Assembly (NCBI GenBank): GCA_044892525.1 | Contig: CM097887.1 | Span: forward strand, 111,268,397-111,332,396 | Direction: 5' to 3' | DNA from: Schmidtea polychroa | Lineage: Eukaryota | DNA: 64,000 bases | Shown here: one piece after another, positions 1 to 57,960 of the stretch | Position numbering within the stretch: position 1 is the stretch's first letter | Layout of the letters: each line of letters begins with the position of its first letter | Program-made: the position numbers and the translations under genes | Notes under the pieces: generated by a model | Database searches by the model: none | Seen by the model: the letters and a program-made list of their open reading frames with translations, nothing else | What the model was told of the DNA's origin: nothing

Positions 1-2
1 CG

Positions 3-2732
3 GAAGCCTTCATAATCTTAATAGATCTATTATCATATGAGGATAATAGGGAGATAGGAAACATGTATGACGGGTTATTAACTGGAATCAAAGAGAAATT
101 AATAACAATTACTGGAATACTAATTGCATGGAGGAACCCGATCAAAAACGATTATATGGTAGATATAAACGAAACATTTACCAAAGGAGAAAATACCTTG
201 ATGAGGGAAGCGATGAGAGGACATCACCTATTCGAAATTCCAAATCAACTACTACAACGTGGCATAAAATTTTCAAATCACAAAGACGAACAACTAATCA
301 GAAAACGAATTACCAACTTCGAAAAAGCTATATCTCAATTTACCGATAAAGTACAAGTAAAATTTTGGGAAACCGTGAGTGTATTATATATGATGGAGAA
401 TATGAACAACATTCGAGAAAACTACCTAAGTATTATTCAAGTGCTTACGGCGGAAGAACGCATTAACAGTTCAAACAAGTAAAAGATAAAAATAAAGAAA
501 GTAAAAACAAGAGAGTCTGAGGAACAAGTCGATCAAATAATAACCGATATAGCAACAACAAGTAAACCAAAGATAATAAACTCAGACCAGGAGATAATAA
601 TACGCAAAGCCAAAGAGGTGTTCTTTGAAGAAATGCAAGATCTATCCGATGAAGCGATACTAGCAAAAATAACAAAAACAGTACACACCTACGCAAGAGA
701 CCAGACCACAAATCTAGACATAGAAAAAATAAAAACATTTATACCACTAGCATTCACCTTACCAACAAAAGACTCAAGAACACCATTACAACAAGCCATT
801 TTAGCAGCAAATGAAAACAGAGCAATAACCATCATAAGAATCCTTGGAGACTTCGGAGAAGAATCTAATGCAAAAAATGAACAAGGAGAAACAGCAATAA
901 TGTATGCAGCCATAACAAATATACACCCGAAAACATTACATATACTACATCGATCGGGATCAAGACTGGACGAAATATCAAACGAAGGAAATTCTACCAT
1001 GGATTGGGCAACCATACAACCAAACTTGGAAATGATTAGATTCATTTGTAAAAATGCTACAAGAACTGAGGTAGAAAATATCTGTAAAAACACGTCACAG
1101 TTCCAATGGAACACGATACGGATGAACTTAGAAGCCATGAAGTTATTGCTAACATGGAAAATACCGCAAAGCAATAAATATGCAATAAATATAAATGAGT
1201 TCTACGAAAACGGAGAAAATGCTATGGTTAAAAATACACTAACAAAAGGAGGAACTCCGAAAATCATAATGATCGTATTGAACAGAGAAGACCTCAAATT
1301 CACGCAAAATCTAAACGAACAAAAGCGGATTGGAAAACATCGCCGTATACAATTGAGAGAACTGGTAAAAGAATGGAATAGAAAGAGACATGTAGCAACA
1401 GGCAGAAAAGAGTTTGAATTCGAGGCAAAATTAGCAAGGAATAGAGTGTTAACGGCATATCGCAGATTATTGAACGACATAAATGTCGAGGACGACATTT
1501 CAAACGATAGCGGGGGAGATAAAGACGATAAAGACGACGATGATAATGAACAAGGTCGAAACGGGAATGGAGAGAAAGAGAAATCAGAGGAAAATAATCA
1601 AGGGAATAACGACTCAGGTATAAAAAAGGAGGAAAATAAACCGGGAAGCCGAACAAAGGAAGAGGAAAAGACGAATAATGGGAAACAGAGGGTATGCCCA
1701 CTTTTTACCAACAAGGAAATGGAAACAAATATGATGGTAATGATACTCATACTAACAATGATAGAAATGATAACAGCCCACGGTGGAATGAGAACGATAA
1801 AAGAAGCCAAGGAAACGGAAAACAAAGACAACAAGGAGAAGGAACTAAAGCAAGAAAAGAAGAAGCAAGTACGAGAGCAACAATGGGATTTAAAAGAAGA
1901 ATGGGATCTAAAAGAAAGATGCATACTAGGAAGATGTATGTCGAGAGCATATCGGAGACTAGTATTAATAAATGAAGATACAGAACCAATAACGGAAGTA
2001 AGAATACAAGAAGCATACCGGAATCGAGACGGGAAGAGAATAACTAAAGTCAAAGGGAAGGAGGTACACCTGAGAAAAGGAGGTGAGGTAGTGATAACGC
2101 AACTCCAGCCAAGAAAAGAACACAAAGTCTGCATTTCAAGATTAGGACCGGGTGAAGACTGTCTACAATATGTAACACAGCAACAACCTCCAAAAGAATA
2201 CACAGTATGCATCTGGAGAAACGATACAGCGAGAGAATGTCGACGATACCCTGGGAAAAGAGGGAGGAAAAGAAAAATCAATGACGAAAAAGATGAGCAA
2301 GGAAAACGCAAGAAAACCGATGAGAAATATCAAGACAATTATGTATCCGAGGAGGAGATGGAGAAAATACAAAGAATGGCAAAGGAAGGTATGAACGAGG
2401 AAATAGCAAGAATACGAGGAATGATAAAAGGAAATGGCAAAGACGGTAATCTAAAAAACACAGAAGCAATATCAACAATAACGAACAAGGAAAAAGCAGA
2501 AATTATAAGCATAAAACAGATGATGTGGATCAGCGGCATAATAATAACAGGGGCCTTTTTAATCATAACGGGGGAGACAATAAAAATAATCAAAGATAGG
2601 CGGCATCGCGGAGAACTAGAAATGGCCAGAATAAGAAATTTTCAACATCGTGTAAAACGACCAAGTAATATCAAGCAGGAACAGTGGGTGGAGGCCTGGA
2701 ATGCTCAGCGCCCTCCAAGCCCACGTATATAG
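3..2732 (+). CDS. Accessory ORF A (5'-partial): ankyrin repeats + acidic linker + internal signal/TM + FN3-like ectodomain + TM; one in-frame TAA at 480-482
   Basis: Frame 3 is open from base 3 to 2732 except for a single TAA, so ORFs 63-482 and 618-2732 are in the same frame. Ankyrin-like units: DINETFTKGENTLMREAMRGHHLFEIPNQLLQRG, RTPLQQAI, GETAIMYAA, GNSTMDWA. Hydrophobic segments: MMVMILILTMIEMITAHGG and MMWISGIIITGAFLIITG. FN3-like motif VVITQLQPRKEHKVCI and an NDT sequon. Confidence 0.7.
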
Positions 2733-2900
2733 AAAGGATTATGACTGTATATAGATTGTAAAAAGTAAGTAGATAATATTTATTTATATAACAGTATGAT
2801 ATATTTTTATATAACCGCGGTATCAATATTATATAACGATGGGGATAAATAATATAAAAATAAAATTGGATAAGGGTTGAAAAGTATATATAAATTAAGA

Positions 2901-3275
2901 ATGGAGCGAATAGGCGAGGAAGTAAATCACAGTACAACAACCGAGGAGATGTGGAAACAACAATGTGCAATGTTAACTCAAGTGATTTCGAACTTACAGG
3001 AACAAGGACTCGCTGTACAAAGAAGCTTAGTCGAAAGTTTAAATAAAGGCTTCAGTTATGTAAGAATAATCGAAGACCAACGAATAAAAATAGAACAAAT
3101 GCAGCGAGAGATAGACCGAATATCACGATACAGCCAGGTGCAAGAAGAGGAGTTATTAAGAATCGCGGAAGAGATGGAGCGAGAGGAGATAGAAGACTGG
3201 TCAGAATGGTTAACCAGCAGGGAAGAGGGCGGACAAGAGGCGACTCTTCCAGCCAATAAATATAACCTAAAATAG
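2901..3275 (+). CDS. Accessory ORF B, small coiled-coil protein (124 aa)
   Basis: ATG at 2901. E/Q/R-rich heptad-like sequence with the same codon bias as the flanking cassette ORFs. Confidence 0.6.
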   Translation: MERIGEEVNHSTTTEEMWKQQCAMLTQVISNLQEQGLAVQRSLVESLNKGFSYVRIIEDQRIKIEQMQREIDRISRYSQVQEEELLRIAEEMEREEIEDWSEWLTSREEGGQEATLPANKYNLK

Positions 3276-3348
3276 CAATGTAAATAACTGTAAATAAAAA
3301 TACGAAACTGTACCAGTAACGAATATATGTATATATATAATTATAGAA

Positions 3349-4736
3349 ATGGATAAGCGACAACGAGAAGAATTCAAAGAAATTGTTGAACAAGTCAGAA
3401 AGTCCACCACAATTCGAATACACAACCATGTAACGTGTGGGATATGCAAGAGCTTATTAAGAGAACCTCACCAAACCAGATGTGGATGCAGAATGTGCAG
3501 AGAATGTGTAGAGGAGATAATAAAGAAGGGACCACAATGGTGCCCAGTATGCAAAGAAACAATGATAACAAGTTTGGGAGATACAAACGAAGATAAAGCA
3601 GCTGTAAAAGATATGTTGAATGCAAACCTAGGATGTAAAAACACCCCATGTAATTGGCGAGGAGTGATATGGGAAGTGAGGCAACATATGGAGCAATGTG
3701 AATATAAAATCAGTCAATGCAAACGTTGCCAAGAAGAGATTAAAGTCAATGAAGAAGCAGAACATCAAAGTCGATGCGAAGGAAGACTGGAGAAATGTGA
3801 GTATTGCGGAGAAACCGACACCTGGAAAAAACTAATCAGTCAACATCACAACATACAAGAGGAGAAAGTGTGCACAGAATTCAGAGGAGAATGCCCCAAC
3901 AAATGCGATAAACCCGGAGTAATAAAACTCGCTCAACATCTAAAAGAATGTGAAAGAAAAAGATAACGTGTGTGCTAGGAAAATGGGGATGTCAGAAACA
4001 ATTACACCGAGGGGAATTACCCCAACATCTAGCAGAAAACGTATCAACACACGCGGAAATATGGTCAACGGCATTACAAGAAAACGAAAGGAAAACCGAA
4101 AACTTAGAAAGAGAAATAATCTCGCTAAAAGCGTTGGTAAAAGAACTATTAGAAGAAAAGGAAGCATTTGAAGAGGCAAGAACAAGTACAAAGATACAGA
4201 CAGATCTAGTAGAAACTAGCAACATTATGGTGAAAGAACTACATCAAAAAGTAAGCGAATTAAACCTCAACGAATTAATACCAACGGCTCCATACATATG
4301 GAAAATAACGGGAGTAAAAGAGAAGATGCAGAGAGCGAGAAATGGAAAGGATACAACATTACTAAGTCCAGCATTCTACTCATGGAAAAACGGGTATAAA
4401 ATGAAAATGAAAGCATACCCCAATGGGGATGGGAGTGCATACGGAACGCATTTCTCAGTATTCTTCTTGATGTGCAAAGGGCTATACGACGAGTTAATAG
4501 AATGGCCATTCAAAGCAAAAATAGACCTCGCAATGATGAACTATCAAAGTATACATGAACAGAGTTTCCATACAGCGGGAAACCTCGTATGTTACCAAAG
4601 GCCCTTGGAAGAAGAAGGACCAGCAACTGGAGCACCGAATTTCATCCTACAGCGGAAAGTAGAAGACATGACGAGAAACGACACTATATACATAAAAATA
4701 GCGGTGAGGCGAGACGGGAAGAGTAGGACTGAGTAG
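3349..4736 (+). pseudogene. TRAF: TNF receptor-associated factor (RING + TRAF zinc fingers + coiled coil + MATH), intronless, split by a 1-nt frameshift
   Basis: RING CGICKSLLREPHQTRCGCRMCREC...CPVC, TRAF zinc fingers (CKNTPCNWRG...HMEQC), and a MATH domain (YIWKITG...SPAFYS...GYKMKMKAYPNGDGSAYGTHFSVFF...EWPF). Adding one A to the A5 run at 3957-3961 fuses the two ORFs as ECERKKITCVLGKWGC. Confidence 0.92.
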
Positions 4737-4950
4737 AGAGACGAATAATTTTGTATATACTAATTGTAAATATCGGCGTATATATCCAGTAAAATATTAT
4801 ATAATAGTGTAGAAAACCCCAAATCTACTAAAGGTAAACTTAAGCGTAAAACTCCTAAAACAACTCCTATAACGAATTGTAACAATAAATAAATAATAAA
4901 ACAGATATAGACGTACAACGTTGAGTTAATGATATCGTTATTTAGACAAG

Positions 4951-5988
4951 ATGACTCAAGATCAAACGGAAGCCCCAAATAACGAAATAAACATCAGTAG
5001 AATACATAGAGAGAGATGGGCCAAAGTAATGATACAATTATCAAACCAAACACGAAATTACCTCGAAGAAGCGAGAGAATGGGAAAACCACCAATTCCAG
5101 TGGTTAGTACAGAATTTACGGGCGGAGGCCGAGGCCTGCAAAAGAGCCGCCAAATGGTCGGCATTAGAAAATACCAGGCAAGAGGCGCACGGGCATTACC
5201 TGAAGCAGCTGGTACAGGAGTCAAGAAAAAGACTAACGGATGAGAATAAGAAGCGGGAAGTAGAAAAACAAAAGGAGGAAAGAAAGACCCGCCAACTATT
5301 AGCAGAAGCTAGAAAGTGGAAAAAACAACATCGAGAAATCCAAAAAGAGATGAGAGAATTGCCGCAGAGATTGAAACACGAGAGTGATCAAGGAAAATGG
5401 GAAGAAAACCTGGATCAGAAAGAAGAGTTAAGAAGGCTCCGGAAAGTAGCAGCTAGAAGTCAAACCTGGCAGACCAAGGCCATGGAATTTGAAAGGCATC
5501 TGGCCATGAAACTGTCTATAAAGGAACAGGAAAATACCGCCATGGAAGAGATGATCCTGCAACAGTCAGGTAGAATCGTCGAACTCGTAAACAAGGTGGC
5601 AGATCTTGAAAGAGACAATAACGGCTATAAGGGGGCACTAGAACAAAGGAATATAGTGCTAGCCGGTAAGAATAAGAAATTGGAAAACGAGAGGAAGATG
5701 TATGACGAAAATATCAAGAACCTCGAAAAGGAGATCAAAAAATGGGAGAACGGCGAAAAAGCGGAGGAGTTAGAAAAACAGATAGAAGTAAGAGATGATG
5801 AAACCAGGTATCTGACATACCTGTTAGACGAGGAACTCAACGTGTCAAGAGCGCTAAGAGACGAAGTTCAGGAGCTTAGAGCACAGATTCCCCGGTACTA
5901 CATCCCATTTGATCCCATCGCAATCCAACTACAAACGTCAATAGACAGCGATGAAGGGTATGTAGGCCAGGAAGAAACCTTTGTATAA
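4951..5988 (+). CDS. Accessory ORF D, long coiled-coil protein (345 aa)
   Basis: Intact ORF, E/K/R/L-rich helical sequence with a short non-coiled C-terminal tail. No recognisable family. Confidence 0.7.
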   Translation: MTQDQTEAPNNEINISRIHRERWAKVMIQLSNQTRNYLEEAREWENHQFQWLVQNLRAEAEACKRAAKWSALENTRQEAHGHYLKQLVQESRKRLTDENKKREVEKQKEERKTRQLLAEARKWKKQHREIQKEMRELPQRLKHESDQGKWEENLDQKEELRRLRKVAARSQTWQTKAMEFERHLAMKLSIKEQENTAMEEMILQQSGRIVELVNKVADLERDNNGYKGALEQRNIVLAGKNKKLENERKMYDENIKNLEKEIKKWENGEKAEELEKQIEVRDDETRYLTYLLDEELNVSRALRDEVQELRAQIPRYYIPFDPIAIQLQTSIDSDEGYVGQEETFV

Positions 5989-6038
5989 AGATAAGGTGAA
6001 AAGATAAAAAATATAAAAAGCGGGACCTGTATCCCAAC

Positions 6039-6067
<29 letters not shown>
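6039..6067 (+). repeat. Poly(A)29 tract between ORF D and ORF E
   Basis: 29 consecutive A, flanked by imperfect direct repeats CGGGACCTGTATCCC (6021-6035) and CGGGACTGTAACCC (6093-6106). Confidence 0.9.
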
Positions 6068-6070
<3 letters not shown>

Positions 6071-6183
6071 ATTAGTACGATAAAAATATTTACGGGACTG
6101 TAACCCTGATTATATAAAATTACCTATAAATGTATAAGTATAAGCCGCACTGTAGCGCACTATTAATTGTAAATATTGTAGAA

Positions 6184-6894
6184 ATGAAAATAGAAGAAAT
6201 ATCCACCATGACCGAGCTAGAGGAGGGAGAAATTGAAATCGAGGAAGTGGAGAGGAAGAAAACTATCAAAGAAGAATTACAAGAAGAGAAACAAGAAAAC
6301 GAAAGATTAGTAGAAAGGTGGAGAGATAATCGAAAAATGATTAAAGTATTGAAAAGAGAATACACCTTGCTAGAAGAAGTAAAGAAAGAAGTAGAGGAAG
6401 AAAATGAATGGCTTCACGAGCAAGGAAAGCGAGGAAGAAATTGGGAGAAAATTGCGGAGGAATTATGGCAGGAAAGAGCCAGTCTCAAGGCTAATGAAGT
6501 GATTGAAGATTACTGGAAAACGGAAGCGAGGAAACGACAAGAAACTATCAGGGGTCTAGAAAACCAGCTGGGAGTAAAAGTGCAGGAAAGTGCAAAAATG
6601 GAGAAATGGATCAATAAATACCGAGAAATAGAAATAAAACGGCAGAAACAAAGCCCAAAGACGAACGACCCAGAAGAAAATGATTTCCTACAATTGGAGC
6701 TGGAACGGAACTTGGAGGAGAAAAAGAAGGAGATAAAAACCTTGAAAAGAGAGATAAAACACTTGGCGGACAAGGTCCAAGAGAAAGATAGGCAGCTCGA
6801 GATGTTGCCGGAACTCCGACATAGGGTCATTAAAGCAGAATCCAAATTAATGAGAATCCGAGAGAGAGACCCTAAAAAGAAACGACAAAATTAA
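6184..6894 (+). CDS. Accessory ORF E, coiled-coil protein (~236 aa; alternative start 6130)
   Basis: Intact E/K-rich heptad ORF. The ATG at 6184 follows a TAG acceptor-like site, and the charged composition begins there. Confidence 0.65.
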   Translation: MKIEEISTMTELEEGEIEIEEVERKKTIKEELQEEKQENERLVERWRDNRKMIKVLKREYTLLEEVKKEVEEENEWLHEQGKRGRNWEKIAEELWQERASLKANEVIEDYWKTEARKRQETIRGLENQLGVKVQESAKMEKWINKYREIEIKRQKQSPKTNDPEENDFLQLELERNLEEKKKEIKTLKREIKHLADKVQEKDRQLEMLPELRHRVIKAESKLMRIRERDPKKKRQN

Positions 6895-6953
6895 AACCAA
6901 CAAAAAGCGATGTATATAAATATGTATAAAATAACTAAATGTATATCAGTATC

Positions 6954-7613
6954 ATGAGAAGCCAACCGATCATTGTAACGCTGATGATGATGATAATTCT
7001 TGATCTAACCCGACGACAGCCAGTGAAACCCCAAATCGAACGGGTTCGAGACAACAGAAAACCCCATCAGAAAATCGAACCAACAACCCCATCGTGCACC
7101 TGCTCAAATGCCATAAGAACCAATCTTATCAATAACCTTCGAGCAACCCGAAACTACATCAACAACATCAGAATTATGTGTAATCACAACCCTATGTGTA
7201 AAATCATCGATAAAAGAATTCTGGACCAAATTCACCAAGTCGATCAATTAGAACAGCAGGTCCAACACCAAGAAACACAAAATCCACCCGATCAAGTAAA
7301 AAGCCCGAATGAAATAAACCACACCTATGAACTCCTCTATGTGGTAATCGCCGAGACCACCTTAATCTCAATAGTCACCCTGCTAAAAATCGGTAACCTC
7401 TGCAAAGTTTGGAAGAAAAGTCACCCCGTACCAGAAAGATCATCTCGAAGATCCCAAGAAGCTAACATGGCTGAAGTAATCCATGAAAACCTCCGTCAAC
7501 GAACCTCCATCGCAGAAACAGTCAGACCATCCGCAAGTCGCCGAATATACTACAACATCGAACCCCAACAACCAAATCCCCCATCATCAACGGCAACTGA
7601 ACACCAAACATGA
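6954..7613 (+). CDS. Accessory ORF F, small type I membrane protein in the env position
   Basis: N-terminal hydrophobic signal (IIVTLMMMIILDL), Cys-containing helical ectodomain (CTC; CNHNPMC), TM segment LLYVVIAETTLISIVTLLKI and a cytoplasmic tail. It is the last ORF before the PPT-like tract. Confidence 0.65.
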   Translation: MRSQPIIVTLMMMIILDLTRRQPVKPQIERVRDNRKPHQKIEPTTPSCTCSNAIRTNLINNLRATRNYINNIRIMCNHNPMCKIIDKRILDQIHQVDQLEQQVQHQETQNPPDQVKSPNEINHTYELLYVVIAETTLISIVTLLKIGNLCKVWKKSHPVPERSSRRSQEANMAEVIHENLRQRTSIAETVRPSASRRIYYNIEPQQPNPPSSTATEHQT

Positions 7614-7829
7614 CACTTCGAACTGTAACTATTGACAAAATTCTTGATGTTTTATTATATTATGATGAAACCGGTCACCTTAAGTGGCCACTGCTTGTCT
7701 ATAATTGTCATTTTCTCTGTTTAATTAAAATAATTTTTGTTAATTTAATTCTATGTGTGTGTGGATTTTGATTGTGAGATTAGTTGTTATACTGAAAGCA
7801 GGTACGATTCGAATGTACGATATTATGTG

Positions 7830-7867
7830 AATTGCGGGACGCAATTTTAACGGGCCCCGGAGTGATT
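7830..7867 (+). other. Gypsy-type 3' hairpin and degenerate polypurine-tract region
   Basis: Perfect 7-bp stem AATTGCG/CGCAATT with a GGA loop (GGGACG core), followed by TTTTAACGGGCCCCGGAGTGATT directly before TG at 7868. The tract is not purely purine. Confidence 0.55.
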
Positions 7868-8365
7868 TGTTGGGCCAAGCTCCGAAGGTGTTGGAAAAAC
7901 GAACCTAGGAAGGGATAGAGTAAAATAAAATAAAAACATATAAAAATACGAGAAACATAGGAGGAAACAAATTAAATATCCAGAAAGAAATTAGAATAAA
8001 ATTAGAATAACTAAATAAAATAACAAAACCCCTAAAGGAAAAATAAGACAAGAGGGAAGGCACCTAATAAACGACAGTAAAAGAAAAAAAAATAAAATAG
8101 CAGAAAATTTAAGAAAAATGAACAAAAGTAAAAGAAGAAAAACAAAATAAAAATAAAAAAATCATCCATAAGGCTAATTAAAACAAAAAAGGAAGTTACA
8201 ATAAAATAGCAACAAAACCACAAGAAAAACAGATAAAATAATAAAAAATAGGAAAATAAATAAAATAATAATAAAAATAGGAAAAAGTCATTAAAATATA
8301 CCTGATTACATTAAAAAACATAAAAATCATAATAAACAATAATATTACATGCAAGTCGCGTCCTG

Positions 8366-8389
8366 ATTGGACGAAAAGTAATATATAAA
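8366..8389 (+). promoter_or_regulatory. LTR Pol II promoter: inverted CCAAT box and TATA box
   Basis: ATTGG at 8366-8370 and TATATAAA at 8382-8389, followed by a hairpin-forming region (8403-8436). Confidence 0.6.
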
Positions 8390-8709
8390 GAGCGACAAAA
8401 ATCTGTAGAGTATCATTCTAACCCGAAACTCTACAGGTAAAATTTTATCCTTTATAATATCATTCTAACCCGAAACTCTACAGAAAAGCTAGGAACCACT
8501 CACAAGCACAGATTATTGAACCATATTCATTTATCGGATAACATATACATTGAACGGAGATCGAATTCAGCTCAGTCGAACGAGTCTATCTAAAGAAAAC
8601 TTATATTACTTTGATCTAACACCTTCGGAGATTTTTGGTAAATTATGTTTTAGATTTTAGTATGATGATCTAAATATTTATTATGAATTTAACAAGTCGT
8701 TTATAATCC

Positions 8710-8750
8710 AATAAATTTCATATTTTAAACGAAGGTGTTGCTTTCTCTCT
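8710..8750 (+). terminator. Putative LTR polyadenylation signal with GU/U-rich downstream element
   Basis: AATAAA at 8710-8715 followed about 20 nt later by GGTGTTGCTTTCTCTCT. Confidence 0.4.
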
Positions 8751-10708
8751 ATGAGGCTGGCGACGGCGTCCTCTGGAATCCGGGTATGATGCAGTTGGGT
8801 TTTTCGAACGTCCTACGGAGAGGAAATTTACGAATATGAACTCGGGAAATTGAAGTGATAGAACTAGCCCAGGATCCATATGAATTTAGAAACTAAAGTG
8901 ATTACTTAATGAATACGAGATTTATGCTAACCAGAGTCATCATGCCCGGATTTCAAATGTCGTGGTCGCCAGGTGAACATTTATTTAATTGATTTTCTCA
9001 TAATTCCATTATTTCTATATTGATTCACTGAATAATTAAATTGTATTGTTGCACATTTATTGAGAATGGAGTTGCGATGAGACGGGTCGAGTCGTCCTTC
9101 ACACCGGTCCAAGAGCAGTGGGCAGAGATGCGTACTGCCTTGGGTGGGTTGTGAGGAGCGAGGAAACCATGTGAGATTTAACAAATCAAGTAAATGATTC
9201 TTTCATCGAGTGTAATCCACCCATCTTAGTCGTCGAAAACCATCCAATGCAGAAACTTCTGAGTGACATAGTTTGAGTCAACGATACCTTGGGAACTCCC
9301 GGAGGCATACCATTAGAACTATCATCAGCCTTGTATCCAATCACGTCATTAATAATCTTTGATTTGGAGCCTTATTCGTCTTGCATTGAGAGAAGCGACT
9401 GCTAGAACGTCTGCCGGAAGGAGTTATTAATTTCGAGTTTTTACGAGAGATTCTCTGTACTAAGCCCATTTCGTATCTTACAATCTGAAGGTGCTTTGGA
9501 AGCTACACCGCCGGGAGGTTAGCGAATAGATCCATCGTCTTGCTTATCGTCGACTCCGGGGGGACTTAATCATCAACCGACATCTAGCCGCTGTCATCGA
9601 TAATAGCCGTTTTAGAGATGAATGTAAACATCTCTAGATAGTAGATTTAAACACTGGCTATGAGTCCGAAGGAAACGGTCGCCAGCGACATCGGGTGGGC
9701 GTAGTAGACTGCCGGGAAATCGGTTGATAAGATATCTGAAGCCTCAGTCACGAGCGAACGAGTTGACAGTTTTTATCTCAAAACCAATTAGTGGAGCAAA
9801 ATCTAAATATGGAATCGATCTTATCTAGTAGATTCGCAATTTAGCCCACACAATTAGATTCACGAGTTTTCTATGACACCCTCTTAGATTTCCACCTATC
9901 TAGAAAGTCAGCCAGCGATGTCATGTCTAGTGTGCAGATAGTGGATAAATTTATCTCACGATTGTGTAACGGTAGACCAGGAGATGGTAGACTACATGTC
10001 CAATCCGACAGTGAGATTACGTCATACTGAATAGTAGAATGTTCTACCTAGTCCACGACCACAGGCTGAAGATAAATCATACAATGCATGCATACGAACA
10101 GACCTGACAACATCTGCTAGCCTACCTCCAGGGTAAAACTAATACACCACTACTCACAAACAAGCGTCGTTATGACGACATTTATGGCGCAAGATTTAAG
10201 ATGATCAAATAGCAAATTATGATAAGACTTAAATTGAATTTTGCGGTTCTTTTATGAAGCCGATCACGGCGGTTTAAAACCCCAATAGTCACCCGTCATA
10301 CCGAACTATGTTTTTGTGACTTCACGAGTGCGAAATTTTACGAGTATAGTAGGACGGGGAGTGGGAATGCTATTACTAGGGAAGGATAATTATAACAAAC
10401 TCGACTGTGGTAAATTAATAAAAGCACATTAAATAAAAATGGCCAATTTCGGACAACAAACATAAATTCAAAGTTAGGATAAATGTATTATTTTGAGGAA
10501 GCCCGTTTTCTTTTTTTTTTTTTTTTCTCTATCAGTGTGGATGCTTGCAGACAAATGAGTGTAAATGTTGACCAGTGATATGGGTAAGTGGGTCATTGTC
10601 GAGTAGGATGATTGGAAATAGGGTAAAAATTGTAGTCAAAATTTGGAAACGACACTCCAACGATTTTTTTTTTAAACTCTACAATTAACAAAACGTCTTG
10701 ATCTTTAG

Positions 10709-11470
10709 ATGCCTGCTTCAACCGCTACGAACAAGGATCTCCGTCCCTGCTTCTCCTGCGCAGATAAAAACGCAGACATAGCACAACTCCACTCATACAT
10801 TGGGGCACTGAAAAAGAGAATTGATCTCTATGAAGGCACGTGGTTCTCCCCGCCACAGATGAAGGAGGAGCGCAGTAAAATTCTTCGGTTGGAACATTGC
10901 CGGGACAGCCTCCTAGAGGAGAGTCGCTGTCAAAGACTGACGATCAAGGCGCAATCGGAAGCCCTCCACAAGGTCTACACGGAGGCAGAATTGGCCAAAC
11001 GGGTACGAGAATTTCCCGTCTTGGAGGCCAGCAATGTTTTTCCCACTCACCACCAAAGTACTTCCACCGCTACAACCAGTTGTCTGGGGCACGGCTCCTA
11101 TCTGCCGCCTGTTCCAGCACCGGCCTTATATAGTTGTCAGCCGCCGGTAGGTGGTCCATCCGACCCTATCTTGGCTCCAGTTTTAGTGACATCAGTTACA
11201 GCACCCGATGCGGACAACCATCAACCACAGCGTAAAAGAAAACGGCCGACCCGAGCCGCCAAAAATCAAAGACGTCGAGATGCAATCGCGGCTCTCGAGG
11301 CGTCGTTATCTGTGGCCAAGTCTTCTCTGGAGAAGTTATCGTCAATACCCTCTACCCCCACAAAGGAGATATTCCGGGTGATCTCGCCCGAAGGGGTCCA
11401 GCTCGTGCGAGACCGTCGGTTACCGGTCGACATCGACGAGATGATCGCCGAAGGGGAAGTTTTCCCATAA
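10709..11470 (+). CDS. LTR-encoded 253-aa protein (CxxC, coiled coil, Arg-rich motif, acidic C-terminus); intact copy
   Basis: Intact ORF preceded by TTTAG. Homologous ORFs at 32975-33748 and 43587-44360 share LE(H/R)CRDSLLEESRCQRLTIKAQSE with mostly synonymous differences. Confidence 0.85.
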   Translation: MPASTATNKDLRPCFSCADKNADIAQLHSYIGALKKRIDLYEGTWFSPPQMKEERSKILRLEHCRDSLLEESRCQRLTIKAQSEALHKVYTEAELAKRVREFPVLEASNVFPTHHQSTSTATTSCLGHGSYLPPVPAPALYSCQPPVGGPSDPILAPVLVTSVTAPDADNHQPQRKRKRPTRAAKNQRRRDAIAALEASLSVAKSSLEKLSSIPSTPTKEIFRVISPEGVQLVRDRRLPVDIDEMIAEGEVFP

Positions 11471-14270
11471 TTGGACGTGTCGTTGACCCATCTCTCATTC
11501 CACGCGATCAAGCTCAACAATCTTTATAAACGACTTAGATGATGCGTGTTGTGTACTCTCCTACGTGTTGTGATCGGAAATTTGTGTTCATATGTATCCT
11601 CAATTTCATTAATATAATCATAGTATTCGTTGTGTTGTCCCGTAAAAGTTATAGAGTGATGAGTTATGACTGGACGAATGGATTGGAATGATCATTGGAG
11701 AATGTGGGTCGTCCCCTTGGACCAGGGTCGTACCGAGAATACATGACGAGTAGGGGTAAGACCTTCTTAGGCACCGAGGAACCTGAACTGAGAGGGGGTC
11801 CGTAGTAGTCCTAAGGCAGGGGCTCACCTGCGGACCAACTCCGACCCGTGTGAGCAGTACCAACGTGGGTAGATCATCACGGGCTCACATGAGGGAATAT
11901 TTGTAAATCATGCGGGTTATGTGGGGGAAGGGCCCCGAGCTAAAGGAACATGATGCCAGCTGCACTACGAATGTCCGTTTGACTCCTCCCATATACGCCC
12001 AACAATAGTAATCGATAAAAGTGTAATTGTGATTGTCTCGAATAAAGATTATTGTGTTTGGTTGTTTAAATAAATTTCAGAAAGAACACAAAGGAGTCAG
12101 ACCGTGATACCGACTTGCACAAAATAACTAACACTAAAATGTAAGATGAAAAATATAAGATCATGAAGATTGTTGAAGAACAACCGAATATGACGAAGAA
12201 ACCTCTTCATAGTATGAAACCTCAAACCTTAAACAAGGTCTTGGAGAACAAAAAAGATTCTCTCGCAAAACTGTTTGATTACAGCTGAAGATAATTCTCC
12301 CTTTTAGACGAATATTTTGGATGTAGTCAGTCATAATGTCTGTAGAATAAAGTGAAAAGTAGAATGATTGAAACCAGTTTTCGTTCAACGGGTTTTGTCA
12401 AAAGGACAGAATTTTATTGGACTAAACCCAGTAAAATAACATTTTAAATTATCCTTTTGTTTAAATTAATAATAATTAAAAGAGAAAAATAAATGGTCAT
12501 CTGAGAAGACATCAAATCAAAGAGCAGTTATTTAAAATAATTAAAAACACCAATTAAAACTAAAGTAAAGTAAAACAAAAATAAGAGATAAATAAAACAA
12601 AATTAATAAAATCAGTATCACATTATGTATAACACACGAAACATATTTTAAACGCATAAAACTACAAAATAAATTGTCGAAAAAAGACAATAGCAAAAAA
12701 GTATCACCTTATCCATGGGAATCCTTAGAGGTTATTAGCCTAAACGGTGGTAAATGTTCTCAAGTCACCAGCTGATGGCAGTATCAGAGTCTCCATATGA
12801 GGCAGCCGTACAGTCATCTCTGACAATTATAATATTAAAATAACCGCTCGACATCATCTAAAGAAGGCCACGGCAATCAGTCAATTCTACAACCATGCCA
12901 TTCCGTTAATCATCAACCTAAGCTTGAACGAAATGGTTTTCTCCTTTACAGTCAATGCCAACATCTTCAACCTTGATGATTTGTTGGCCAATGTCGAAAG
13001 AGAGGTTATAAGCCCATCTGGAACTTTGTGTGTTGAACTAATTCATTTTGTTATGTTTTGTCAATTATTATTCATTAAATCTCTATCGCTGTATTGCTTT
13101 GATTTTCATTTTTTCTAAGTTACTAATAGATATATTATAAGTAATAATTATCATCTTCATCTTAACAGATAGGTGGTATTCAGGCCTCAAGAAGGAATTA
13201 ATATATCCCGTAAATTTTGAGGACCACAAATTTCGATATGTTATGACAATACCAACTTATCGTCTCTAGCTTTGGCGTAAGACCTTTTATAGCCCGTCCT
13301 GAACCCGTTTCAGATCGTACGATAATGAATAGTTCTGGCTTACCTGCTTATCGACCTCAATCTATTATGTACAATTCCAACATGGCCATCGATTTCGGTC
13401 CTCCAAGCTGATGGCTATTTATTATCGCTATTTATTTTAATTTGGAATACCATATAATCCTTATCGCACGATTCAGTAGGTTATGTTTTATATTTGTTTA
13501 TGTTTTTTTGTTATGTTTTGTTTCATGTATAATAATTTAAATCAATAATTTTTCTGATTCATTTTTTCTTAATTTAATTTAGTTATTATTATGTAAATTT
13601 TATGAATGCACTTGTCCAAAAATTCGATTTGTAAAGATATATGCTGTAGTCGGATGACAATCCACACCATTAAGCTGGGGGAGCTCAATGAAATTCTTGC
13701 GAAGTCGTGTGGAGTTTGGTGCCTCAATTTGAAAGTAAGCGGTACTCGAATTCCACTTAGAGAGGACTTTAGTGCAAATCACCTCCGTGACCATTTATAG
13801 TATCAAAATATGCATATGAAAACCAGATCAATGATGAAAACCCACATTTTATCCTTTCGAGCGATTTCCAGCGCAACCCAGAATACAAGAAAGTTGTACT
13901 GCTCGATACCCGTTGAGCTTTTCTCGCTGGTGTTGTCCACTTGTCAGTGAGAGGGCTCCAACCGATAACCGTGATTCCATGCTCGAACCCGGAGTGCTTC
14001 TTATTTACGAGCTTGAATTCAAATGTTTGTTCAATCTGTTGATCTCCCTTAGCTGCTATTTTCGTTTGTACTGTTGGGGTTGGGCTCGTTCAAAGAGCAA
14101 TTTCATTAACCGTATAGAGACTAGGATGATAGTTATAATAATAATAATATGTAGATAATAATAAAAATTATTAAAAATAGCATAGATATAATAATAGTAT
14201 TATTTAATTACCTAAAATAAATTAGAATTAGAATTAGTACATTTAAATTACTATATATAGATAGTATGCT

Positions 14271-16131: not shown

Positions 16132-17475
16132 CTCACTATAGGACATTGATTTATCATAAGGACATTCAATAAGCTAAAAATTTTCATTTTTAAATCAAAT
16201 TATTGTCAAAATGTTCGAAGATATTTCAGAAGCTTCTTCAGAATCAACAATTCCATTTCAAGAAATTCATAGAAATGTGTAAGTTTTTCATTAAACTTTA
16301 ATTATTTTTTAAAAATCGATATAGAATTACCATTAAAGATAAAGAAAGAATCATTAAATCCATGGAAGATGACCATGATTATTATGAATTAGGCCGTATT
16401 CTTGGAATTAAGCGGAATACAATAACCAGCATTATTTTGAAATATAAGAAGACTGGAATTTTATCCGCAGGAACAAGAGGAGGCAATCGACCAACAATTA
16501 TCACAACAATTATTGGCCAGGAATTATTGAACTATGTCGAAAGAAATTATTATTCGACATTAAATCAAATGAGATTGTTTTTATCTACAAATCACAATGT
16601 AGAAATTTCCACAAAATCAATATCCAGGTACCTGAAAAATCAATTATTAACCTTCAAAAGGATCAGGCCTTGTGTGGAAGAAAGAAATTCAGATAGAATA
16701 TTGGATATTCGGCAGACATATGTTACACGTCTGCTTGAAGAAGGTTGGAGGAGCAGTAAATCTATTTATATAGATGAATGCTCTTTCAATACATGGACAA
16801 ACAAGAGATTCGGAAGATCTCGAGTAGGCACTCGAATTTACAGCAATGTGCCAACAAATCGAGGTCCCAATATTTCATTAGTTTTGGCAATATCCAAAAA
16901 TGGGCCAATCCATTCACAAATCATCATTGGCTCTTTTAGAAAGGAATCATACCAGTCATTTATAACAGAATTGACTGAGAAACTGAATGGCTCTGGATTC
17001 ATTTTGATACACGATAATGCATCCATCCACAATAATGTATTATCTTTGAACAATCACATAGAAAAGTTGCCTCCATATAGTCCATTTTTGAACCCCATCG
17101 AAAGTGTGTTCAGCAAGATTAAAAATGGGGTAAGGACTAAAGTTTCCTCGACTAATGGATTTTCCAGGATGAGTTTCAATGACAGATTTATCGCAATATC
17201 CCAAGCAGTTATCGAGGAACTTAGCAAACCAGATTATAGTAATTTGAAAAATTACTATAATCATATTAAAAGGTTCTTCCCTAAATGATTGAAGAAGCAG
17301 GATATTTTAGGTGAATTCTGAAAAATGTAATGTATATTATAATAAATAATTAAATATCTTACTTCTTTATTCATTATTTTTAAAAAAATCTTAAAATTAA
17401 CTAAAATCCAGAACAAAGCTTATTTGACAAAGCTAAATGAATGTCTCATTTATGATAATTAAATGCGCTTTGGTG
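16132..17475 (+). mobile_element. IS630/Tc1/mariner-superfamily DNA transposon
   Basis: Transposase gene flanked by degenerate inverted ends (CATT.A.TTATCATAA...GACATTCA.T.AGCT on both sides) and TA dinucleotides at 16130-16131 and 17476-17477. Confidence 0.75.
16211..17321 (+). CDS. Tc1/mariner-type transposase, two exons (16211-16278, 16325-17321), premature TGA at 17286-17288
   Basis: 46-nt GTAAGT...TAG intron joins in frame. N-terminal HTH region. Catalytic motifs IYIDECSF, IHDNASIH and PPYSPFLNPIE. The frame continues LKKQDILGEF after the TGA. Confidence 0.85.
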
Positions 17476-22973: not shown

Positions 22974-25900
22974 TTACCTGTAATCGTAAACCGGTTGCAA
23001 AGAGATGTGATTTGATTTGACAGCAGAATTATCAGCGCAGCCGATGCCAACACTTCCTCCTGAAACAGCAGTAGATGTGCAAAATGGTTCCTGAGGTGCC
23101 AATACAGGCATTGAAGGGCTCGAATGATTCCAAGATGTGGGCACAGCTGCGGTAGCTGTTGCCGCCACCAAAGACGACGATTGTATGATTTTCGAGGACG
23201 ATTTGTCATGCTCAATGAAGCATCCGGGAACAAACAGCTCATTGATGTTTGATGAATCGGAAACCACATCGACCACATGATTAGCACCGTTACCAAGGGC
23301 ATTCATTGTACCAGTTAATAGCTGGCGTTGTGAAACTTTCTTATACTTGGAATTTTTGACGACGACCAAATCGAACTCATGTGGATCAATAAAAACGGTG
23401 GGATCACTGCCAACAAGATATGGGACTGGTAATTGAGTGAATGAATGATGATTAGTAGCTGCTGCAGAATCGGCATGGCCTCCGGCTGTCATCACTGATC
23501 CCACTGCGGAACCAGCAGCACCGTTGCCAACGCCTGATAATGGATCCCGCTGTTCTTGTCGCTGAAGGAGGCTGCTGATTTCATTGTGTGCTACATCAGA
23601 ATCGCTGTCGCTAGTGGACTGGGTCGGACTGAATTGTAATCCCGCTAGTTGCGGACGTGAACGGTGCTGGAGAGATGGCGGTGGAACTAAATTCACTCGT
23701 TCATTTGGACTGAATTCGTAATTAGGCTTGATAATCCCACAACAGCAACAACACGAGGAAGATGAACACGAGCAAGACAATGGCTGATTCTCATTGGTCG
23801 GCGCTTCAGTCACGCTAGAACGCTTTTTTATCAGCTTCAGCTTCAACAATCCAGTGGTCGGTCGGATGGACATATTCTGTGCACTCGGACTTGATCCAAC
23901 CGTCTCCATTGGCTGTTCTGGACTCGACATTTCTATCGATGAATTTTTATCCGATCGATCCTGGGGTTTTGTTGCCGCTAGCTTGAGAATCAATGGCGGT
24001 CTTTCAGGCGTTGCAATTTGCTGGTGTTTAATTCGTTTCATTTTGCACGGTGATATTTTGCGATGTTTCATTGGACTCGTGCTGCTGTTGCTATTGCCGG
24101 CACTTGTATTGTTTGTCAATGCTGCTGAACTTCGTCGGTCTTCTTTCCGTGTACAGAATATCCGTTTGGTGCTGTTACTGCTGATGTTCGATTCTATGGC
24201 GTATTTCTTGGCTTGTCGCTGGATCAATGGCGGCGGTGGAGGAGGCGGTGGGGGTGAAATTATTCCTGGATTAGATTTTATCATCTTTGTCCGTCGTGTC
24301 TGCTTTATGGTTTTAGTTGTTATTTGTTTTGCTGTAACTTTGGTTCTGATAGGAATATTGATTAATGGCGGTGGCGGAGGGGGAGGATCAAGGGGCCGCT
24401 TGGTTGTTGTGGAAACGATTTTCATGTGAGACAGACTGATTTTAACTTTTATTGCTAGCCGTGGACTGGCAAATGACGAATATTTATCATTGGTTAACGG
24501 TTGCGAGTGGTTACAATGGGAATCCTGACTCATTTGCGGCTCTACAACGTTCCCGTGATTGTCGCTCTTAATTTTTCGAATTTTCTCCAAATATTTCACT
24601 GATCGTTTACTTCCGGCTGAATTCTGGTGGATTTGTTTGCACAATTTCGATTCTGAAGTCACTGAAATCGTACCGCTCTTTTTATAATTGGCCTTTTTGT
24701 TGAGAGATTTCTCTTTTCTTTTGTCCGGGAAATTGCCTACCTGTGCCGTTGGTAATTCCAATACCTTTGTCGATCGAATGACACTGGAATTTAGGATCCA
24801 CTTGTTGCGTTGCTTGCTCTTGCGTAGCCAAGAGGCATCCGGTCGATTGGAGGAACTGCTGAAATCTTGGATTGTCAAATTATCCTCTATGTTCGTCTGG
24901 AATGGCAGCATCAATTTCGGCGGGCAAACCTCATCAAACTGCGGTTCCTCGTGCTCCTCGTCATATTCCTGCATTAGACTGCTGCATGGACTGATTGATT
25001 GGCAACTTTCGAGAAATCTGTCGAGATTCGCCAATTGTGTTGGATCACGTTTGATTGGGCTTATATCGGCCAATAAATCATCCTCGGTCAGTTCATCTTG
25101 TTCGGATAGTCGAGTGCAAACTGACAATGGACGAGAATGGTGCTGAATTGCTGGCGCAGTTCCGGTGCCAGTCCTAGACTGCTGTGGTTGTGTTGGTGCT
25201 GAGGCCACCTCAGTCGATGGCAAGAAACATTTGAGTAGCGGTGTGAGAATCTCAGAATGATGCCCGAGATGAGCGTAGATTAATTGCATAACTCGTTGTT
25301 GTTCAACATTTGATGCGGTTGCGGAGGCAATTGATGAAGAAATGGTCCGTGATGGAGTGGAATCAACTAATGGCGATTGTCTGGCAATAACGACACAATT
25401 CGAACTAGGAATCATAGCCTGTTGTGAAGCCGAGATAGAATATCCAGTATTGATCATCTCGATGACAGTTGCATTGAAATATGTAACCGGCTCAATACTG
25501 GCAACCGCAGAATCCGAGCATAAATCCTCCTCAATGATCAATTGTGCATATTTCAGATCAAGGATTGTCACTAACTCATCCAATATATCATCGAATTCCG
25601 GTTGATTGGGAGGGATTGAATTAGCAGCGACGATTGAAGCATCAGACATAACATTGATTCCATGACAGAAGCTATCGATCGAGGCATTATCTAGACCAGT
25701 CGGAATAATGCAATATTGCTGTGCGTCTGATGCAATCCCATTGGTCAGCTCATTGACGAATGAGGACGCAGCTGAGTCATCATCACCACCACATTGGCCA
25801 GACATTTCCCATGCCATCAATACATTATCTTTGTTGTTATTGATATTGTTACAGCTGGCATTGTTGGAATTTTCTTTTTTCGTTGATTTGCTGGACCTTG

Positions 25901-26841
25901 AAGCGTTCGGTCGTGATTTGACAGATGATTTGCGATTTGTTGGTCGTTTAAAGGTTTGAATTTGATTAATATTGTTTTGAATCGGCTGAGTAGTTATTTG
26001 GTGCATTATCTGTCCTGTCGGTTGATATTGCAATGTCCTCGGCATTATTGGATGCTGAGGTTTCGGTAATTTAGGCAAAAGCTTCGGTAAATTCGACCCG
26101 TGAGATGTTGTTGTCATGATGGCAGATGAACGGATATTAGAGGCCGCTGTTGCATTAATCATGGATCCAGCATCATGACTCGTTGTTGTGCTGTTTGTTT
26201 GATTAGATCCACTATTTGGCATACTGAAAAATGCGTGGGGTCCAACGAGATATGAAATAGGATTATTGGATTGATTTGTTTGGCCCATCATTTGATTAGA
26301 TTGTGACACAGCAGTTTGAGTAGTTTCAGGTGTATTCATTAGCGGCATTATTACAATATTAGGTGGCATCATAGACTGTTGATATTGGGCAAATTGGTTC
26401 ATGTTGATTGGAAGAAATTGCATGGATGCCTGCTGATTGTTCTGCTGTGGAGTTCCGTACGAGCAGGATGAAATCTGTTGTTGCAGTTGTTGATCAATAT
26501 CACAATCAGATCGCTTTCGTTGTTCATTGCTTCGAATTGGGATGCAGTGTGAACTTGAAGGACGATTTGGAACCTGGCTAATTGGAGGGGTAGCTGGTAA
26601 GCTTCGAGTTCCAGATTGAACTTTACAGTCCGATGACATTAATGATAAAAAATCATCTTGTGGCGCTTCGGTTTTTGTTGGTTTGTTCGATCTAAATCTA
26701 TCAGAAATAACCAGCAACTATTTTCATATTAGTATACCCAGTAATGTTTGACATGTTAGAGTTACTAGAACAAACTATTGATTCATTTCTAATAGGAGCT
26801 ACCGTTGCTCGTAAAGGAGTTGTTTGGGATCTCACTGCGTT
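22974..26841 (-). CDS. Large low-complexity (S/Q/N/P-rich) probably nuclear protein; 3.7-kb exon plus an upstream 104-nt exon; gene ends uncertain
   Basis: 1247-codon open frame. A 40-nt intron (26698-26737) joins exon 26738-26841 in frame. Possible donor at the 3' end (AG|GTAATA). Basic clusters and poly-Pro runs. Confidence 0.8.
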
Positions 26842-32430: not shown

Positions 32431-34300
32431 TGTTGGGTGCTTAGGGGTGAGCCGCGATGGTAGTTGTTAGGGGAAGTGAAAACTGCTCAGAGACTCCTTC
32501 CTAAACGCTCATTATGATTATTATCTGACTGCCACATGTGTACCCATGATATAGATCATGTTGGAGATGTACTCACGGGTTGGAATTCATGAGCATGTAA
32601 GCCGCTGCGTCAGAACTACTCCTCATGATATTCACTTTTCGGGTCCTAGAATACCGATAGAAGGACTTACATCTTACTTATTTTCTCATATCGAGATACT
32701 GACAAACCTCTGGTCCAGTTGAGGTCATCCTTAATCACTTTCTTTCTCTATTACACGACCATCAGACCGAAACATTTTTCAATTTCTTGACACCGATAAG
32801 ACAGACAAAAACATACGACATCAAAATTGTATTAAATTCACAGTACGTGAGATACTACATGGTCTTAACACATCCAACAAGTCATACGACAAAATTTACG
32901 ATATTAGTAGTAGATCAAAAGGATACATTTTGTCCGGATCAATTACAGTTAACGACGATAGACGGCCTGGGAAGTTATAATAGTTCCGCACCTTCCTTCA
33001 AGAGAGCAGCGATATCTATTTCCTACTGTGGGTCTCTGATCGGTGGAGTATTATAGGAGAGCACAACCCTATAATGAGGAGTACTGGGCAGTGCTTGGTT
33101 AGATGTAGATTCCTTTTTCACCGTACTAGGGACAGCAAACAACATTGCTTCCACGACAGCTATTTCATCTCGTCGTTTCTTTGAGCTCTCAGCACGAGTG
33201 AGGAGATTGCGCTTCCGAGAAGTTGGCTGATTAGGAACGGTGAAAGTGGTTATCGGAACTGTTAGTGATGTGGTTACGCTGGGTGGTTGAGCCAGGAACA
33301 CACTGGTTTCCATAAAAATGGCATCGGAGATAAGTGAAGGGGACATTTCGGGTCAGTGATTAAGGCAGATCGCCGTAGAAAGGACTCGAGTTTCGTCGGC
33401 ACGATGATGGACCGAAAAGACGTTTAACTTATCGATGACCGGAAACTCAGTGATTCGACTTTTTAACTCCGCCTCCGAACAAATGCTGTGGAGGGTCTCC
33501 GACTGGGCCTTGATAGTGAGTCGCTGACACCGACTCTCCTCTAGCAAACTGTCTCGACAGTGCTCTAAACACAAGATTTTTCTATTGGCCTTCTTCATGA
33601 GTGATGGGGAGAACCACGTACCTTCGAGTGCATCGATGCGCTTCTTCAGAGCCCCGAGATTGTCTTTCAGTTGCCGGATTGTCGGATTTTTATCTGCGCA
33701 CGAAAAACACGGCTTTGGGCCAGGCTTGGTAAGATTTGATTTGGACATTTATTAAAAATTTAGAAAGATATTTATAGGGTGAACGCGAATATCAAATGGA
33801 TATATAAGTGATCAGACATCTGGTCTATAAGTCATAAGCATATACAAATCGAACTTAACCCTACTTCTAGCATTTAAATTTTACACGATGGTCGGATTTC
33901 AGTGGATCTCCACCTCTTACCCTACTATCATCTCTGTGTATGTCTTGGAAAATTTTCCGAGCATGGGGACGAAATTTGATCGACGAATATAGGTGAACTT
34001 CTCGTTATTATTAAAGAAAAGGTTAATTAATCCAGAGGTTTAATTTGAATGATGATTAAATTTAAAAGTTATTTTAAATAATATTAGGGATAAATTAAAT
34101 GAACGGGTAGTCGGGGAAAACCTTCCTTCTTATTTAAATGAATATTTAAATTTAATTCAAGTATTAATTAGAAAAGTGATTCGATTCGAGAATTGGCTTA
34201 ATTAGTATTAGAGACGAATCAAATATATGTTTATCAACAAATCGAATAGACTAAATAATTGTTTAGGTGATGGATTCAAAGTAACATTAATTTTTATTGG
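32431..34300 (-). repeat. Partial LTR, second subfamily copy (terminus at 32431)
   Basis: Minus strand ends in CACCCAACA. Contains the conserved terminal block and the LTR-ORF homolog, and abuts the MULE at ~34302. Confidence 0.7.
32975..33748 (-). pseudogene. LTR-encoded ORF homolog, copy 2, with two in-frame stops (33353-33355, 33023-33025)
   Basis: ORFs 33353-33748 and 33023-33346 are in one frame. The frame continues EIDIAALLKEGAELL*, matching the C-terminus of copies 1 and 3. Confidence 0.85.

Positions 34301-57929: not shown

Positions 57930-57960
<31 letters not shown>

Follow-up and report, generated by a model that had tools for sequence, protein, structure and literature searches.

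The 64,000-nucleotide stretch of Schmidtea polychroa DNA analysed here (contig CM097887.1, positions 111,268,397 to 111,332,396 of the forward strand; hereafter the window) opens inside a giant long terminal repeat (LTR) retroelement that is best read as a member of a Burro-type family of the Ty3/Gypsy lineage. The full LTR element measures 30,562 bp (G000:C3:111249839-111280400), and the window, which begins at G000:C3:111268397, holds its 3′ end. There, a long polyprotein frame is followed by five accessory open reading frames (ORFs), one of which encodes a TRAF with every domain from RING to MATH. These five ORFs are under purifying selection, and their products probably act on survival or immune signalling in the host.

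Anatomy of the element and its accessory ORFs

A preliminary description of the window, made from its letters alone, had placed a 4.1-kb TG...CA LTR at 7868-12004 and predicted gag, reverse transcriptase (RT), RNase H (RH) and integrase (IN) upstream of it. Both expectations were borne out. The element carries two 4,137-bp LTRs with 0 mismatches over 4,137 bases, the 5′ twin lying 26.4 kb upstream, and gag, CCHC, env, protease (PR), RT, RH and IN domains were all found. The target-site duplication, proposed as the 5-bp ATAGT, is present but comprises only the 4 bp ATAG. The parts of the element that lie in the window are as follows.

1-2732 (+): C-terminal tail of the polyprotein, with ankyrin repeats, a beta-rich segment and a predicted transmembrane helix (Ank_2 matches, hydropathy, continuity with the integrase)
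2901-3275 (+): accessory ORF 1, small coiled-coil-like protein, 119 amino acids (aa) in other copies; the window's copy diverges near its end
3349-4736 (+): accessory ORF 2, TRAF with RING, zinc fingers, coiled coil and MATH; the window's copy has a frameshift near 3955-3965
4951-5988 (+): accessory ORF 3, 345-aa coiled-coil-like protein; no Pfam match
6130-6894 (+): accessory ORF 4, coiled-coil-like protein of 233-254 aa; likely start at 6184; 3′ half within a swapped module that starts at about 6544
6939-7613 (+): accessory ORF 5, predicted type I membrane protein; hydrophobic N-terminus and one transmembrane segment by hydropathy; hypervariable
7830-7867 (+): short inverted repeat (7 bp, 7830-7846) and conserved tract before the 3′ LTR, recognised from sequence; tract not purine-rich
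7868-12004 (+): 3′ LTR, TG...CA, 4,137 bp, identical to the 5′ LTR at G000:C3:111249839-111253975
8366-8483 (+): predicted promoter and leader (ATTGG at 8366, TATA at 8382, 26-nt unit at 8411-8436, 21-nt spacer, exact second copy of the unit at 8458-8483)
10709-11470 (+): 253-aa ORF within the LTR, including a basic segment (RKRKRP); full length in 10/10 5′ LTRs
12005-12008 (+): target-site duplication, ATAG, 4 bp; same four bases just before the 5′ LTR

Target duplications also flank ten of ten other LTR pairs, being 4 bp long in nine and a 7-bp match in one AT-rich pair. The two LTRs of each of these pairs differ by just 0-6 substitutions, and the family is therefore young. It is also abundant: an exact-pattern count of the first 24 nt of the TRAF gene returned 100 dispersed genome matches, in agreement with the multi-copy cassette that had been anticipated, and junctions of LTR end and primer site gave 554 exact-pattern matches genome-wide, a figure that likely includes related or deleted elements. 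Five such junctions with a spacing of about 13.55 kb, at G000:C1:77268872-77323121, form a tandem array of a shorter element. The primer site after the 5′ LTR is complementary to the 3′ end of genomic tRNA-Pro genes, for which 1,577 pattern matches were counted genome-wide; a long tandem array of tRNA-Pro(TGG) genes with a 475-bp unit starts at G000:C1:130901009. At the other end of the internal region, the Gypsy-like hairpin and polypurine tract of the preliminary description are half upheld, in that the 7-bp inverted repeat is there but the tract is not purine-rich. The final 20 nt before the 3′ LTR are constant except at one position in 10/10 elements, and the 7830-7867 tract is a candidate plus-strand priming site.

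Upstream of and into the window, a domain search revealed a single long frame of about 14.2 kb, or an estimated 4,600 codons or so, that encodes Gag, CCHC knuckles, env, protease, RT, RNase H, integrase and ankyrin repeats in one chain. The env domain is a Monjiviricetes-type fusion glycoprotein (E 2.6e-72) lying in frame between gag and protease, and an accessory ORF for a RING protein precedes the polyprotein. A Bcl-2 match before env, the position it has in Burro, is weak (Pfam E 0.046; the sole PDB matches are to Bcl-xL, E 1.3-2). For the ubiquitin/SUMO-like motif that was sought, a weak PI3K_rbd match (E 0.003) was obtained in the mid region, and the same domain searches of the element gave no dUTPase match; the published motif calls came from HHpred. 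Neither a MATH domain within the polyprotein nor a BIR ORF was found in the window's family by domain searches.

The window's copy interrupts this frame with four in-frame stops, the last of them at 480-482. For comparison we used 39 copies, namely 39 of the 40 best-scoring among 370 candidates chosen by TRAF similarity, and a second set of 20 other copies, picked not by score but as they came in the list for chromosome C1. The frame from integrase to ankyrin repeats runs on without a stop in 38/39 of the other copies, and the stop at 480-482 was seen in the window's copy only. Since the frame crosses this site unstopped, ORF 633-2732, which the preliminary description had counted as a separate gene, is the tail of the polyprotein. 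At the three upstream stop sites, among 20 copies compared there, the frame is open in 19, 17 and 18, respectively, and closed in none, the remainder not being covered. Programmed readthrough of the four stops was rejected, given that no other covered copy has them, save one of 39 that is non-continuous at the last site.

The reading of this tail as an ankyrin/FN3-like membrane protein holds for the ankyrin repeats (Ank_2, E 8e-7) and for membrane anchoring (a predicted transmembrane helix at aa ~627-654 of ORF 633-2732, by hydropathy). FN3 received no support in Pfam, in the PDB or from a 4-sequence profile run against 1.84 billion representatives (0 matches), all of these searches being shallow, nor from a single-sequence fold model (pLDDT 41).

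The cassette thus comprises five downstream accessory ORFs, not the six that had been described, to which the upstream RING ORF and the 253-aa LTR ORF are added; the latter had gone unmentioned. The intronless, same-strand ORFs lie at about the places first given, and the strand bias is equally evident, with an AT skew of 0.36-0.45 over window positions 1-7000, a strong A excess on the strand that carries the ORFs. The TRAF call is sound as to RING and MATH, but in the window's copy the gene is split into 3349-3966 and a second frame that ends at 4736. It forms one 462-aa ORF in 38/39 top-scoring copies and is full length in 13/20 of the further copies, the other 7/20 lacking it. In total, at least four in-frame stops and two frameshifts were seen in the window's copy only, despite its 100% identical LTRs. 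These lesions may have arisen before or at insertion, the LTRs may have been made identical by conversion, or the lesions may be assembly errors.

Elsewhere in the window, homologs of the LTR ORF with 45-51% identity occur at 32990-33748 (-), 35663-35809 (-) and 43593-44326 (-), and these are probably LTRs or fragments of related Burro families. The stretches at 16302-17288, 28803-30495, 34764-35690, 22974-26717 and 54865-60679 hold, judging by eye from the translations, putative ORFs of transposase type, a putative low-complexity host exon of 1,247 codons and putative exons of a SNF2-type helicase.

Selection, relatives and the origin of the TRAF gene

The five downstream ORFs are under purifying selection. 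Pairwise ratios of nonsynonymous to synonymous diversity (piN/piS) among the top-scoring copies are 0.02 for env and RT, env being the most constrained region, and 0.04-0.18 for the ankyrin and beta-rich parts. For the TRAF gene the ratio is 0.14-0.16 in 38 top-scoring copies and 0.14 in the 13 full-length ORFs of the score-independent set. Accessory ORF 3 gives 0.13 in both samples and accessory ORF 1 gives 0.18-0.27 across the two; the coiled-coil ORFs other than ORF 3 range over 0.16-0.27 in the top-scoring copies and stand at 0.18 and 0.30 in the second sample. The membrane ORF gives 0.34-0.45 and 0.42-0.44, respectively, and the LTR ORF gives 0.15 across 10 5′ LTRs. Between the window's family and a sister-family copy (L130), the TRAFs are 69% identical with a ratio of nonsynonymous to synonymous substitution (dN/dS) of 0.09, dS being near saturation. 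In most ORFs, shared variants are more constrained than private ones. Judged from these patterns, the cargo is functional for the replicating element.

Two apparent signals were set aside. The last 160 aa of the polyprotein show a piN/piS of 0.95 with few synonymous variants; positive selection was not accepted, given the bias from copy choice, the few synonymous sites and a dN/dS of 0.08 for the whole integrase-ankyrin tail against L130. Low diversity at the TRAF gene in the top-scoring copies (piS 0.03-0.05 vs 0.14 in the second sample) is not a selective sweep but an artefact of choosing copies by TRAF similarity.

It is hardly credible that the ORFs are carried along neutrally or stem from faulty assembly: the stops and frameshifts of the window's copy would fit, but 100 dispersed copies, a dN/dS of about 0.1 against the sister family (with dS near saturation) and the same order of homologs in a family about 75% identical over PR-RT-RH all oppose it.

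That second family emerged from a genome search for MATH domains, in which 150 of 1,551 candidates were scored. These 150 include 13 rows in frames longer than 2,400 aa and dozens in 487-aa frames, and both groups belong to one Burro1-like family that has MATH in its polyprotein as well as downstream ORFs (two copies examined). Its downstream order is coiled-coil, whole TRAF, BIR-RING IAP, coiled-coil, coiled-coil and membrane ORF. The window's cassette has the same order minus the IAP, and three of its five ORFs (the first, the TRAF and the third) are similar to their Burro1-like counterparts. Accessory ORF 1, for which no Pfam match exceeded the cut-off, is 36% identical over 58 aa to the homolog at the same position, and accessory ORF 3 is 29-32% identical to its homolog. 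In Pfam, PDB and representative searches, no host homologs were found for the two membrane proteins or the three coiled-coil proteins.

Within the window's own family, a module that starts at about 6544, spans the membrane ORF and reaches into U3 is swapped between copies. When window positions 6544-8480 were compared with the 39 copies, 10 aligned throughout, 27 broke at 6544 and resumed at 7665, and two ended early. The membrane ORFs form two clusters of 11 and 29 entries, and the two main protein types share just 47 of 189 aligned residues (~25%), with further subtypes at 70-83%. These differences suggest that the module was exchanged by recombination between diverged lineages. One copy (L017) combines a type-B membrane ORF with a type-A leader and is likely a recombinant.

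The TRAF itself runs from RING to MATH in one chain (MATH Pfam E 3e-25), with PDB matches to TRAF2/3/5/6; the top Foldseek matches of its model (pLDDT 67) are all TRAFs. Over its whole length it can be aligned with four intronless TRAFs of the host, at 27-32% identity, and a homolog search recovered just 12 distant proteins at 25-29%. Where the corresponding RING motif usually reads CGH, the element TRAF has CGC, as do 4/4 of the aligned host proteins. In the peptide groove, whose positions are given in TRAF2 numbering, the tyrosine is retained, and the residues matching S453 and S467, which are serine in 4/4 host rows, are changed.

A MATH tree was built from 41 regions, 36 from the S. polychroa genome and five of the 12 distant proteins, with three of 20 loci giving no usable row. 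The element rows fall on a starred branch (97/92) together with 12 rows, all of which have RING or zinc fingers in frame with MATH; among the 12 are the sister family and a row located next to RT/integrase remains. The other 18 rows stand outside that branch; in 17 of these, mostly in clusters on C2, MATH has a frame to itself. By sequence, then, the element TRAF is akin to intronless TRAFs of planarian type, and its simplest history would be capture from a host intronless TRAF before the families split. The converse proposal, that the element was the source of the intron-split host TRAF clusters, draws no support from this small tree. Clusters of intron-split host TRAF genes occupy G000:C2 1-5 Mb and 105-124 Mb. 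At L109:1-3997, an intronless TRAF-like frame on the opposite strand adjoins RT/integrase remains and may be the cargo of another element.

A predicted, repeated leader in the LTR

The predicted promoter of the LTR is followed by an exact repeat. The 26-nt unit ends at a predicted splice donor (AG/GTAAA), and its second copy ends a predicted 47-nt intron (8437-8483). Among 60 LTR stretches, which are not independent in that ten pairs are included, an exact repeat of 25-28 nt lies 27-30 nt after the TATA in 53, a shorter match is present in two and none in five. At least four LTR types can be told apart by their version of the unit; minor variants occur in both copies, and the repeat is homogenised within a type. 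Three units occur in one LTR, and two others have neither the spacer nor the second copy. We take this pattern to reflect an intron of 44-53 nt, the end of which would be copied anew from the spliced 5′ end at minus-strand transfer. To our knowledge, a copy of exon 1 at the end of a mini-intron is not known from complex retroviruses or foamy viruses. The bases just before the second copy differ among copies, as expected of imprecise strand transfer. Two unrelated LTR-like stretches share the order TATA, repeat, GTAAG donor, repeat (L011:1749-1825 and, on the minus strand, L106 near base 47), and two scans of the LTR stretches of the Burro1-like family did not find the leader repeat.

Each accessory ORF is then likely translated from an mRNA in which the leader of about 26 nt is joined to an acceptor a few bases before the ATG, as in complex retroviruses. 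A YAG within 6 nt before the first ATG is present in 4/7 accessory ORFs and before a second in-frame ATG in 2/7; at the seventh an AAG stands in its place, for which the sister family has TAG. Of the accessory ORFs of the Burro1-like family, 6/8 have a YAG within 6 nt before the first ATG, against a background of 15-22%. A separate promoter for each cargo ORF was rejected, as TATA-like words in the spacers are too near the ATG or are expected in DNA of 20-27% GC. Among the contig rows listed from sequencing runs that may or may not be RNA, none joined the leader to an acceptor, an outcome that tells neither for nor against splicing. This layout of leader and acceptors constitutes a direct, testable model of accessory-gene expression.

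Probable role of the cargo and comparison with known systems

We consider it reasonably probable that the window's element is a recent, defective copy of a multi-copy Burro-type Ty3/Gypsy family whose selected cargo acts on host survival or immune signalling of the TNF-receptor type in the cells that express the element. A TRAF with an intact RING, a trimerising coiled coil and a partly altered peptide groove could help the cell that carries it to survive, working as an E3 adaptor or as a decoy. The lesions of the window's copy would date mostly to insertion or before, with the copy mobilised in trans. Modulation of host immune or cell-death signalling, as advanced in the preliminary description, remains plausible with a cargo under purifying selection, but the accompanying idea of an IkB mimic of the polydnavirus vankyrin type is weakened, because the ankyrin part is the membrane-anchored end of a polyprotein and not a free-standing, small soluble gene. 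Release of the ankyrin part by the protease is possible. An origin among DNA viruses or Polintons, named earlier as a refuting case, is not borne out.

Several points weigh against this interpretation. Purifying selection attests usefulness to the element and does not say which process is served. The groove changes are modest, and the residue matching TRAF2 R393 is lysine, as it also is in 2/4 host TRAFs. PxQxT/S-type TRAF motifs occur in just 1/4 element tails tested. The element rows are not a starred clade on their own (93/88 with two other rows), and the direction of TRAF transfer is not proven, because the tree has 172 columns and is rooted by distant proteins only. Expression and splicing of the accessory ORFs are predicted; 3/7 acceptors fit only with a second ATG or with an AAG, and ORFs that are homologous do not count as independent cases. 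Gene conversion can bias dating from LTR identity. Separately, tails that recruit TRAFs in the manner of LMP1 were rejected as a mechanism, with one weak motif in four tails.

More tentatively, the Burro elements of flatworms may be enveloped retroviruses of the complex kind, in which spliced mRNAs led by an LTR exon yield a whole TRAF together with a hypervariable surface protein. The intron would be rewritten at each reverse transcription with the donor kept, the remodelled TRAF would rewire TNF-receptor-type signalling, and the membrane/U3 modules would be competing "serotypes" with different tissue range.

Rather unlikely, in our estimate, is that the cargo serves the particle cycle of the element itself (assembly, trafficking, budding, entry or interference between subfamilies). 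The TRAF would then ubiquitinate or scaffold the element's proteins and would not modulate host signalling. The extreme constraint on env (piN/piS 0.02), the lack of detected host homologs for the two membrane and three coiled-coil proteins, the altered groove serines and the joint swapping of the membrane ORF with U3 between subfamilies are all in line with it. The TRAF, however, retains the full host architecture, and the IAP and BCL2-like motif of sister families (the Bcl-2 matches being weak) point to control of cell death, as does the reported function of the Burro1 IAP (PMC13465017).

Improbable, too, is a mutualism in which the cargo is kept for its benefit to the animal through stem-cell survival and regeneration. 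It could appeal to the reported stem-cell role of the Burro1 IAP (Lee et al. 2026, as cited in PMC13465017) and to the need for host TRAFs in planarian cell survival and regeneration (PMC7586133). The window's family, however, is without a BIR-RING ORF and no single domesticated locus was seen. Selection acts via replicating lineages, shared variants being more constrained than private ones, and inserted copies decay (7/20 without a full TRAF ORF).

Burro1/GYPSM1, Burro-2, -3 and -4 are giant Gypsy-like LTR elements of Schmidtea mediterranea (PMC6431247, citing Jurka 2007 and Grohme 2018). That study reports MATH_TRAF_C, BIR, ankyrin and BCL2-like motifs in Burro1-4 and, for Burro elements, also AIR1, Smc and ubiquitin-like motifs and an in-frame env, and it proposes that the cargo tinkers with apoptosis and ubiquitination. 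The claim that no LTR element was known with a full TRAF plus ankyrin cargo therefore falls as a claim of novelty, as MATH_TRAF_C and ankyrin motifs are named there. The window's element shares with Burro a length of about 30 kb, LTRs of several kb, a huge gag-CCHC-env-PR-RT-RH-IN-ankyrin polyprotein (near 4,900 aa in Burro) with env between gag and pol, and accessory ORFs and cargo of MATH/TRAF, ankyrin and coiled-coil kinds, to which a BCL2-like motif may be added, its match being weak. Unlike Burro1/GYPSM1, which has MATH in its polyprotein and a BIR, the window's family has neither, and its TRAF is a separate full-length downstream ORF. In a Burro-like element of Dugesia tigrina, MATH_TRAF_C likewise lies outside the polyprotein in an accessory ORF (PMC6431247), but that ORF is described as upstream, whereas here the TRAF is downstream and the upstream ORF encodes a RING protein.

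The element is real, but the idea of its cargo is not new: the Burro design and a MATH/TRAF, ankyrin, BIR and BCL2-like cargo were already known. What is added here is the selection on five ORFs, the order shared with the Burro1-like family minus the IAP, the grouping of the TRAF, the types of membrane ORF and the model of leader splicing. In the literature searched, which did not extend to Grohme 2018 and Lee 2026, neither the LTR leader repeat nor a Burro TRAF ORF complete from RING to MATH was described, although those two may already show the complete TRAF, the splicing or the window's family.

Expansion of planarian TRAFs is described in PMC6109357 and PMC7586133, and in the latter the words "transposon" and "retro" do not occur. 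About 100 TRAF copies, and dozens more from the sister family, inflate counts of MATH domains, and the expansion (PMC6109357) therefore needs to be re-counted with element-borne copies removed. BURRO1 RNA rises on smedwi-2 knockdown (PMC8532177). A working Burro1 IAP (B-IAP) is reported to protect stem cells (Lee et al. 2026, as cited in PMC13465017) and, like the predicted role of the window's TRAF, is a case of a host-derived cell-death regulator as a Burro accessory; this IAP belongs to the Burro1-like sister family and is absent from the window's. With an IAP-less family keeping a full TRAF under selection, the TRAF is the obvious next Burro cargo gene to test.

Two viral systems offer further parallels. 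ORF111L of the fish iridovirus ISKNV is a TRAF homolog that binds TRADD and promotes caspase-8 apoptosis (PMC3352826). It is a virus-borne TRAF acting on TNF-receptor signalling, as is predicted for the element TRAF, but it comes from a DNA virus. Foamy viruses, which are complex retroviruses, have a splice donor in the R region of the LTR (PMC3694450), and the window's element, although of the Ty3/Gypsy lineage, resembles them in its predicted leader donor inside both LTRs and its accessory ORFs behind acceptors.

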